NCBI RefSeq assembly: GCF_009931435.1
Contig: NZ_CP043414.1
Strand: one strand, 5' to 3'
From: Escherichia coli
GTDB taxonomy: Bacteria > Pseudomonadota > Gammaproteobacteria > Enterobacterales > Enterobacteriaceae
Length of the DNA: 64,000 nt
How positions within the stretch are numbered: position 1 is the first letter of the stretch; each line of letters opens with the position of its first letter. This document shows, one piece after another, positions 30,276-33,200 of the stretch. A program made the position numbers.

Positions 30276-33200
30276 TAGGGTAATATTAAATCGGAACATT
30301 TACATCGCGGAATGTAAAATTTAAATAAAAAGGACTCTTCCATGAGCCAAAATTCCTGAAATCTTAAGGGTAAGATAAAAGGTCTTAATCAGAATGACAC
30401 GTTATTATTAATAAATAAAGCTATTCTTTCATTGCTGTGTTTTTCTTTACAAAAGTAATCCTTGCTATGGGTGGTTAATCATGCGTTAATGGTGTTCTGG
30501 TTTGTTACAAATTTATCTGAAGCAGTCATTGTTATAATTTTATTATTTGTACCTCTTGAGATTTCCTTGTTGGTTTTTCTCTCTGATATTTTTTTTCGGA
30601 CCATTCTGCCCAAGGGCTAATTTCTTCAAAAGGTAATAATTATGTCTAACAAAATGACTGGTTTAGTGAAATGGTTTAACCCTGAAAAAGGTTTTGGTTT
30701 CATCACGCCGAAAGATGGCAGCAAAGATGTGTTTGTCCATTTCTCAGCAATTCAGAGCAACGATTTCAAAACATTAACTGAGAATCAGGAAGTTGAATTT
30801 GGTATTGAGAACGGACCTAAAGGCCCTGCCGCTGTTCATGTAGTGGCGCTTTGAGGTAGACAATATTACAAACCATATTCACTTTAGATGCCCGTGTTGT
30901 CATGGTTCCCAGTATAGAACATCATCTTTTGATGTTTCTGACATGAATCCTTTCGGGGCAAAATGTATCTTTTGTAAATCAATGATGATTACATTTGATA
31001 ATATTTCACAATACTTAAATGCCAGCCGTCTGTCGTTGGATTTAAAAAAGTGAAAATGAAGGCTCCTTCGGGAGCTTTTTTGCTTGGTATCTATTCGATG
31101 GATACTCACATACTACGGTAACATCATGAAAAAAATCATAGTTTTTTTTAACTCTGAACCAGCAGTGGTAGTGCCAGCGATGACTGGAGTTAACACCATC
31201 ATGCGTGAATATCCAAATGGCGAAAAAACACACCTTACTGTAATGGCCGCAGGGTTTCCATCTCTGACCGGAGATCATAAAGTCATTTATGTAGCCGCGG
31301 ATCGACATGTTACTTCAGAAGAAATTCTGGAAGCAGCAATAAGGCTCTTGAGTTGATTTGATGCTATTGTATTGATAATTCAGGAAAATTCTCTTTGTCT
31401 GTTTGTGTAAAATTTAGACTATCGTATGTTGATTATTGCGATGTTTCATCTTATCTTTTACACGTTTGCACCATATAATCGACTTACTGTGTAACTGGAA
31501 AGTCATAACAGACTAAAAGAGGAAATGATGAATATTGAAAACTTAAAAACAAAAGCAGAAGCAGATATTTCTGAATATATAACAAAAAAAATTATTGAAC
31601 TTAAGAAAAAGACCGGGAAAGAAGTTACCAGTATTCAGTTTACCGCACGGGAAAAAATGACGGGTCTTGAAAGCTATGATGTCAAGATTAATTTAATCTG
31701 ATGTATTCAATAATAAAATTTATCCATAAACCTCGTTTTTACGGGGTTTTGTTATATTTGAATGGTTCCGAATATCTAAATCACAATTGTTGATGGTTTT
31801 TATTAAACCAATGCAGTCCGGCTCAGGAGTGAGAGAAGCCGGACGTTATGGTTTAGCGTGGTAAGATCTGTGTAGTTTTCTGGATGCTTTCAGTAAATAG
31901 TAATGAGTTATCAAAGGCATAGTAATATCTTTGGTGTTCCTGGATATTTGTAACCCATCGGAAAACTCCTGCTTTAGCAAGATTTTCCCTGTATTGTTGA
32001 AATGTGATTTCTTTTGATTTCAACTTATTATAGGAGGTCTCTATAAGATGTTTGTTTCTGGAGAATTTAACATTTACAACCTTTTTGAGTCCTTTTACTA
32101 ACACTATGTTGTCGTTTTCTAACACAATGTGAATATTATCTGTGGCTAAATAGTAAATATAAAGTGAGATATTGTGACGTTTTAGCTCAGAATAAAATAA
32201 TTCACAGTTTAAATCTTTACGTACTTGATCGAATATTTCTTTAAAAATGGCAGCCTGAGCCATTGGTAAACCTTCCATGTGATACGATGGCGCGTAGTTT
32301 GCATTATCGTGTTTATTGTTTCAATCTGGTCTGACCTCTTTGTGTTTTGTTGATGATTTATGTCAAATATTAAGCCTGTTTTTAATGAATAGTGTTGATT
32401 GCGTAACAAAATTGAGCCTTGCTGGCATCCAGGAGGGATATGCAACCGACAGATGTATGTAAGGTCGATGTACTCAAACTTTCATACTTTTCCTCTTTTA
32501 TGCAGTAAGATTTGAAGTAATATTTTAACCGCTAGATGACGAGCAAACGCATGGAGCGACAAAATGAATAAAGAACAATCTGCTGATGAACTCTCGTTGG
32601 ATCTGATTCGTGTAAAAAATATGCTTAATAGCACCATTTCTATGAGTTACCCGGATGTTGTAATTGCATGTATAGAACATCAGGTGTCTCTGGAAGCATT
32701 CAGGGCAATTGAGGCAGCGTTGGTGAAGCACGATAAGAATTCGAAGGATTATTCCCTGGTGGTTGACTGAGCACCATAACTGCTAATCATTCAAACTATT
32801 TCACCTGTGACAGAGTCAATATCGCATTCTGTCACTGTCAGGCTAATACAGAGCTGCAATTCAACTACTGCAATGTCCTCGTAATTAGGTGAATTTACAA
32901 TATCGTCCTGTTCGGATGCCGGCTGCATTGCTGAAGATGAGGCATTTATGGTTCGCATATTTTCCCCTCATGCTCGTCAGTCCTGTGCGTAGGAAGAAAC
33001 AGGACACTCACACTAATTTGTGTGGGCATGCTGTGATGTCCTTCTGAATTATTCCTATGCCATTATGTAAAGCGCTGTATCAGATGCTCGTCACGGCTGT
33101 CAGGCTGTCAGGCTGTCGGGTCCTCCCGGTGGGGGCCCCTGCCACGGGGCGGGAGCGTCGCGGAAAAAGGCTAGTTTTTGCATTTCCATGGCGGCGGCAG

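Follow-up and report, generated by a model that had tools for sequence, protein, structure and literature searches.

The window analysed here is a 64,000-nucleotide stretch of Escherichia coli DNA (contig NZ_CP043414.1), and the locus under study is the packaging region of a Qin-like prophage; in the matching locus of E. coli A5 the neighbours are cspB, cspI, essD, rrrQ and gnsB. On the plus strand, the cos site of the prophage (cos-1) contains the cosQ-like heptamer GGGTCCT at 33118–33124, identical to that of lambda. The cosN cohesive end GGGCGGGAGCGT is found at 33147–33158 with CG on either side, in the context ACG/GGGCGGGAGCGT/CGCGG (33144–33163), so that the nick falls 29 nt after the start of cosQ. 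Nicks are predicted after 33146 on the top strand and after 33158 on the bottom strand, positions that are read from the ends of phage records, as deposited, and by analogy with lambda. Window position 33147 is the first base of the phage genomes Tritos and cdtI as deposited, and 33146 is the last base of the Tritos genome. Next to cosN is a cosB-like region of type A (CATGGCGGCGGCAGC; 33159–33342), which is ~95% identical to the right side of a second cos site, cos-2, in a satellite element, and which holds two TTTTCACCTG repeats (33240–33249 and 33317–33326). The small terminase gene terS (33343–33870; DUF1441 family, PHROG 141) follows cosB, and after it comes the N-terminal fragment of the large terminase gene terL (33879–34871), which is interrupted by the satellite.

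The lambda counterpart of this site reads ...GGGTCCTTTCCGGTGATCCGACAGGTTACG/GGGCGGCGACCT. The distance from the start of cosQ to the nick is 30 nt in lambda and 29 nt in cos-1, and the 12-nt 5' cohesive end of cos-1 differs from that of lambda at positions 7–11 only, with the flanking CG kept. In lambda-like phages these positions belong to the half of the cohesive end that tolerates change, the flanking CG dinucleotides are conserved and the 7-bp cosQ is highly so, and in lambda genetics no required cos subsite lies further left than cosQ (PMC4669245). In lambda-type cos sites (lambda, 21, N15, phi80 and Gifsy-1) the order is cosQ-cosN-cosB followed by terS and terL, as at cos-1, which has all three features of the type: the cosQ spacing, the cohesive end and the cosB-terS-terL order. 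The defined subsites of such sites do not include an octamer array. Sequence to the left of cosQ is not known to be required in lambda; studies by Cue and Feiss in 1993 and by Wieczorek and Feiss in 2001 reportedly bear on the left limit of lambda cosQ.

Directly to the left of cosQ, positions 33095–33118 of the plus strand read GGCTGTCA GGCTGTCA GGCTGTCG, that is, three tandem octamers. The third unit may be written GGCTGTC(G), its last G being common to the array and to cosQ, where it opens GGGTCCT; the array thus adjoins GGGTCCTCCCGGTG (33118–33131), which matches the lambda cosQ region. The sequence-only reading of the window had named this triple octamer and had placed it immediately 5' of a cosQ-like sequence, and both statements were borne out, the former letter for letter and in agreement with Tandem Repeats Finder. 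This program reports an array at 33090–33117 with a period of 8, 3.4 copies, 95% matches and a score of 47, which ranks among the five best of its 23 rows in the window. Its start is drawn leftward to 33090, into a degenerate octamer-like leader, GCTCGTCAC (33086–33094, plus strand), which matches the unit at 5 of 8 positions.

A triple octamer in tandem, one mismatch being allowed, occurred in 0.15% of 2000 block-shuffled windows, and we therefore regard the array as a real local duplication rather than a chance pattern. The single octamer GGCTGTCA is not notably enriched in the window, with five matches against 1.9 expected and with five reached by 7 of 100 shuffles, and this is the one point in favour of reading the repeat as a chance pattern or an assembly artefact. 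That reading, to which we assign next to no probability, is refuted by the shuffles of the tandem triple and by the occurrence of the identical array in a sequenced phage, Tritos, and in hundreds of independently assembled complete E. coli genomes. For the two-unit 15-mer GGCTGTCAGGCTGTC, seven near-matches with 2–3 mismatches were found beyond the array (41612–41626 and six other sites) against ~1.4 expected from dinucleotide shuffles; this excess is probably a matter of oligonucleotide or codon bias.

Several other functions were considered for the array. An Rfam scan of 30000–46000 at a permissive threshold placed no family at the array and yielded only a cspA thermoregulator and chance matches. 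The thermoregulator is full length (30496–30881, RF01766, 113.8 bits, above the gathering score) and lies upstream of a prophage cold-shock gene. The RNA folding z-scores for the two strands are weak (−2.3 and −1.6), and in an RNAalifold consensus of 12 diverse relatives the covariation term is −1.68, with 2 of 42 pairs compensatory and no pair involving the array. With no Rfam match, negligible covariation and weak z-scores, these scans give no sign of a structured RNA. A coding role was rejected because a unit of 8 nt shifts any reading frame; in addition, the open reading frame across the array (33057–33212) has no PHROG match, and the plus-strand "hypothetical proteins" annotated at this position in some phage records are likely to be spurious. 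The unit is also not a Chi site, as GGCTGTCA has only GCTG in common with GCTGGTGG and true Chi sites are situated elsewhere in the window.

The satellite in terL and its two cos sites

The satellite that splits the prophage terL is ~10.7 kb long (34872–45575), with junctions near 34866–34872 and 45570–45580. It encodes an integrase, an AlpA-like HTH protein, BRO-N, Icd-like and DUF4222 proteins, a primase and SSB, and it also carries a DUF1441 terS of its own and a prohead protease/capsid fusion. The terL frame resumes on the far side (...RIASFWM/EGPAAAYQ...) over a short TGGATG core, and precise excision of the satellite would therefore restore terL. The same arrangement is seen in many E. 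coli genomes, including A5 and O121 strains.

Two further cos sites lie within the satellite on the plus strand. In cos-2 (42057–42127), a GC hairpin followed by a run of six T residues (42057–42078) precedes cosQ at 42081 and cosN at 42108; in cos-3 (44596–44667), a GC hairpin with a T7 run (44596–44618) precedes cosQ at 44621 and cosN at 44648. The two terminators were missed by a terminator scan of the plus strand and were established by folding, with energies of −17.4 kcal/mol for cos-2 and −16.2 kcal/mol for cos-3. Neither site retains any octamers, although the satellite presumably exploits the same terminase, so that the earlier claim of octamers at cos-1 alone, with terminators in their place before cos-2 and cos-3, was confirmed in both sequences.

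The similarity between cos-2 and cos-1 is ~95% over a stretch that opens one base ahead of cosQ and extends through cosB; leftward of it the sequences are unrelated. It follows that the cos captured by the satellite starts at cosQ, without the octamers. For cos-3, too, homology to cos-1 runs from cosQ rightward only. The two satellite sites differ in what lies to their right: cos-2 (42081–42330) has a type A cosB ~95% identical to that of the prophage itself with no terS after it, and cos-3 (44621–44840) has a type B cosB, resembling the one in mEp460_ev081, with the terS of the satellite after it. By means of two cosB regions that differ, the satellite could use two helper specificities. EcCICFT073, a phage-inducible chromosomal island of Gram-negative bacteria, likewise has a pair of cos sites whose cosQ and cosN resemble those of phages. 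In the comparison with satellites of this type, cos-2 and cos-3, with intrinsic terminators ahead of them and no octamers, serve as a natural control, in which the captured cos starts at cosQ.

The Chi sequence GCTGGTGG occurs 22 times in the window against 2.2 expected. Seven plus-strand copies are clustered at 37273–41654, in the satellite just upstream of cos-2, a location that would put them close to the right end of the satellite DNA once packaged. Similar Chi clusters have been described at the right ends of Tritos-type and LLS-type lambdoid phages (PMC12315714).

Unit number in related phages and E. coli genomes

A comparison with the cos regions of related phages, which the sequence-only reading had proposed, gave a divided answer. 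Phage Tritos carries an identical three-unit array at its right end. Tritos, which resides as a prophage in E. coli LF82, releases virions, forms plaques on MG1655 hsdR- and is a siphovirus by imaging (PMC9928086); the repeat is thus present in a functional relative, and its absence from all such phages, which had been put forward as the observation that would count against it, is not what was found. HannyBb and mEp460_ev081 have two units, GGTTGTCA GGCTGTC, as do mEp460, PhiR40_1 and Ayreon, with (A/G)GCTGTCA GGCTGAC. In phages cdtI and phi458, cosQ, cosN and cosB are those of cos-1, but the left flank is unrelated and contains no octamers; in cdtI this is so despite 98.9% DNA identity of its terS region to the prophage terS. 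The array is therefore not found in every phage that shares cosN, cosB and terminase. In lambda and mEp213 there are also no octamers to the left of cosQ.

Ayreon (MF807953, ~44303–44440) retains the module left of the array, both octamers, cosQ and the left portion of cosN (...CTGCCACGGGG), beyond which its sequence diverges completely. The site has the look of a relic: a right cohesive end to which unrelated DNA has been joined.

To count alleles, synthetic queries that differ in unit number alone were searched against 5,426 complete E. coli genomes. Near-exact matches (at least 99%) to the two-, three- and four-unit queries numbered about 147, 276 and 33, respectively, where each class may contain up to ~15–29 partial matches; at least 12 of the 33 four-unit matches were verified as full length. 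Neither a one-unit nor a five-unit allele gave a full-length, one-piece match in these genomes. In viral contigs, the 147 listed sites with the same cosN comprise 69 with no units, one with one unit, 70 with two, six with three and one with four. Among these listed matches, the sole one-unit site lies in a different flank, and 43 of the 69 zero-unit sites have a T-run just before cosQ, as in the satellite type. A pattern scan for three or more units returned a further 10 cos-adjacent arrays, nine of three units and one of four. The same scan also returned two unrelated GC-rich viral contigs with three copies of GGCTGTCA, L185 (IMGVR_UViG_3300025706_000048, array at ~10420–10520) and L184 (3408–3430). 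In L185 several adjacent (C/G)CCTGTCAGGCTGTCAGGCTGTCAG blocks form an independent repeat array with no cos beside it.

The array changes by whole units, in steps from two to four, on flanks that are at least 99% identical. Arrays with a third or fourth unit are all perfect, their units agreeing over the first 7 nt: such expansion is seen in 7 of 17 perfect arrays and in none of the 60 imperfect ones (Fisher p = 8e-6, for sequences that are related and counts that are not phylogenetically independent). In these counts, the instability of the array depends on repeat purity. A G/A polymorphism in the leader (GCTCGTCAC or GCTCATCAC) marks two flank haplotypes, both of which carry two-unit and three-unit alleles. 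The three-unit allele is found with both cosB types. The terL-inserted satellite accompanies a two-unit allele in O121 RM8352 and a three-unit allele in A5 and in the window, and Tritos has three units without it. Unit number shows no correlation with cosB or terS type or with the presence of the satellite. The distribution of two- and three-unit alleles over both haplotypes and both cosB types, with and without the satellite, indicates recurrent gain and loss that is unconnected to the packaging genes.

This behaviour is that of slippage-type short tandem repeats (VNTRs), which consist of head-to-tail, near-identical units as the array does (95% matches), and which share with it the whole-unit polymorphism among near-identical relatives and the expansion of perfect units only. 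Classic contingency loci are different: placed inside open reading frames or between the −35 and −10 elements, they turn a gene on or off, whereas no regulated gene or phenotype could be linked to the array. The array can serve as a variable marker, of two to four units, when Tritos/mEp460-type lambdoid prophages of E. coli are typed.

The conserved module to the left of the array

The array forms the cos-proximal end of a conserved noncoding module of ~140–160 nt, which is ~80–90% identical between two phage clades and which occupies 32957–33094 in the window. The module contains a pair of invariant hairpins (GTCCTGT...ACAGGAC and CACAC...GTGTG), and a small leftward open reading frame starts in it, at ATG 32972. 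In the window this frame begins MRGKYANHK and is 28 residues long. Its counterpart in PhiR40_1 (L193, 1131–1307, minus strand) begins MRDKPANHK and is annotated as a leftward CDS of 58 residues. The N terminus MRxKxANHK is common to both clades, but the proteins downstream of it are unrelated. A separate minus-strand open reading frame of 55 residues (32791–32958) matches PHROG 4035.

Since the leftward open reading frame starts inside the module, the array could lie upstream of a leftward promoter, although none is predicted. The octamers would then be a regulator-binding site or an upstream promoter element for the small open reading frame, with the number of units acting as a phase-variable spacer. 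On the minus strand the unit reads cTGACAgc, a 5/6 match to the −35 hexamer, and such a role would fit the retention of a ~140-nt noncoding module and of the MRxKxANHK start in both clades, the annotated CDS of PhiR40_1 and the PHROG 4035 match of the neighbouring frame. However, a promoter and terminator scan of 32500–33500 returned no minus-strand promoter, no terminator and nothing of either kind around the array, the best −10 candidates lack a −35 element at 16–18 bp when examined by eye, and the frame from the conserved ATG has just 28 codons in the window and leads into unrelated proteins in the two clades. Known regulator sites do not fit either. Met boxes are 8-bp tandem repeats, and Pho boxes are direct repeats of CTGTCAT with an 11-bp period. 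The array has the period of the MetJ met boxes, but its best register matches only 4 of 8 positions of the consensus; it contains CTGTCA, which is 6/7 of the PhoB half-site, but its period is 8 bp instead of 11. The LexA box was likewise rejected for misfit, all three having been compared by eye with consensus sequences for spacing and sequence. On this evidence we consider a regulatory role in leftward expression quite unlikely.

The two-unit core of the array is old. It is kept in the two clades, whose flanks differ by 10–20%; in a third left-flank context, L145, which is otherwise unrelated, ~40 nt including the core are shared, and in a fourth, L135, 11 nt are shared. Its persistence across flanks could reflect either function or hitch-hiking next to cos. 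In an alignment of 40 distinct sequences, polymorphic columns make up 4/15 of the two-unit core, 46/120 of the rest of the module, 1/7 of cosQ and 5/15 of the spacer between cosQ and cosN. The core is under no detectably tighter constraint than the neighbouring noncoding DNA, and cosQ is tighter. In length, too, the array is not comparable to cosQ, as it varies from two to four units.

Packaging signal or neutral repeat

The sequence-only reading implied that the octamers act in packaging termination. They would then be an accessory cis-element that slows or positions the terminase before cosQ, with the unit number tuning termination; the repeats might work alone or with a bound protein, possibly in competition with the octamer-free cos sites of the satellite. 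The array does lie directly upstream of cosQ on the side where the terminase arrives, its two-unit core is kept in two diverged clades and in flank context L145, and a plaque-forming phage has three units. The comparisons nevertheless leave this role without support. Phages cdtI and phi458, with the same cosQ, cosN and cosB and, in cdtI, the same terS, have no octamers at all. The homology of the satellite cos sites begins exactly at cosQ, where presumably the same enzyme must terminate. The unit number varies freely from two to four on flanks at least 99% identical, the expansions follow the rules of slippage, and the core is no more conserved than the noncoding DNA beside it. The lambda precedent, in which no sequence to the left of cosQ is known to be needed, points the same way (PMC4669245). 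A termination element of this kind is, in our judgement, very unlikely.

The variation between two and four units, together with the absence of the array from phages and satellites that use the same enzyme, makes a neutral slippage repeat the most likely explanation, rather than a packaging signal. We infer that slippage is the mechanism and that the array is neutral or nearly so: most probably it is a slippage-generated variable tandem repeat that ends by chance at cosQ, outside the functional cos. An older two-unit direct repeat (GGCTGTCA GGCTGWC), ending at the first base of cosQ, would have been expanded to three or more units by replication slippage. Lying in the noncoding DNA that closes the right arm of the phage, the array would travel with the right-arm end module, and the functional cos would begin at cosQ, as in lambda, with the array not being a working part of it. 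Taken by itself, the array would then matter little, as an ordinary slippage-prone repeat. Combined with the satellite cos sites and with cdtI, it maps the left boundary of the functional cos to cosQ in a cos family other than that of lambda, in agreement with lambda genetics. Three observations weigh against a neutral repeat. The range of two to four units is narrow, and fewer than two are never found in the homologous flank; the two-unit core is old and is kept across clades and in the L145 and L135 flanks; and the octamer-free phages hold a different, palindromic motif at the same place.

This motif is an AT-rich palindrome 7 nt to the left of cosQ in lambda, mEp213, cdtI and phi458, and it resembles a Fur box. 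Its occurrence at the same place in phages without octamers suggests that the position may often hold a binding site, which also lends some weight to a regulator-binding role for the octamers. In a further reading, the octamer cassette, made up of the core and the units added by slippage, is a tunable accessory site directly upstream of cosQ. Through a bound phage or host factor, or through an effect on the progress of the motor, the cassette would modulate the efficiency of terminase stopping at the cos of the phage itself as against the octamer-free cos sites of resident satellites; the unit number would be a fast-evolving dial in the conflict between phage and satellite, and the palindrome of lambda, mEp213 and cdtI would fill the same slot with an alternative cassette. 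We consider this proposal highly improbable; were it correct, the cos model would gain a new, evolvable subsite. The palindrome is located at 48447–48465 in lambda (J02459; 748–766 of the extracted sequence L006) and at 127–145 of the mEp213 sequence L183. Compared with the Fur-box consensus GATAATGATAATCATTATC, it matches at 16 of 19 positions in lambda, 17 of 19 in mEp213 and 14 of 19 in cdtI and phi458, where the highest score reached in shuffled lambda sequence is 15.
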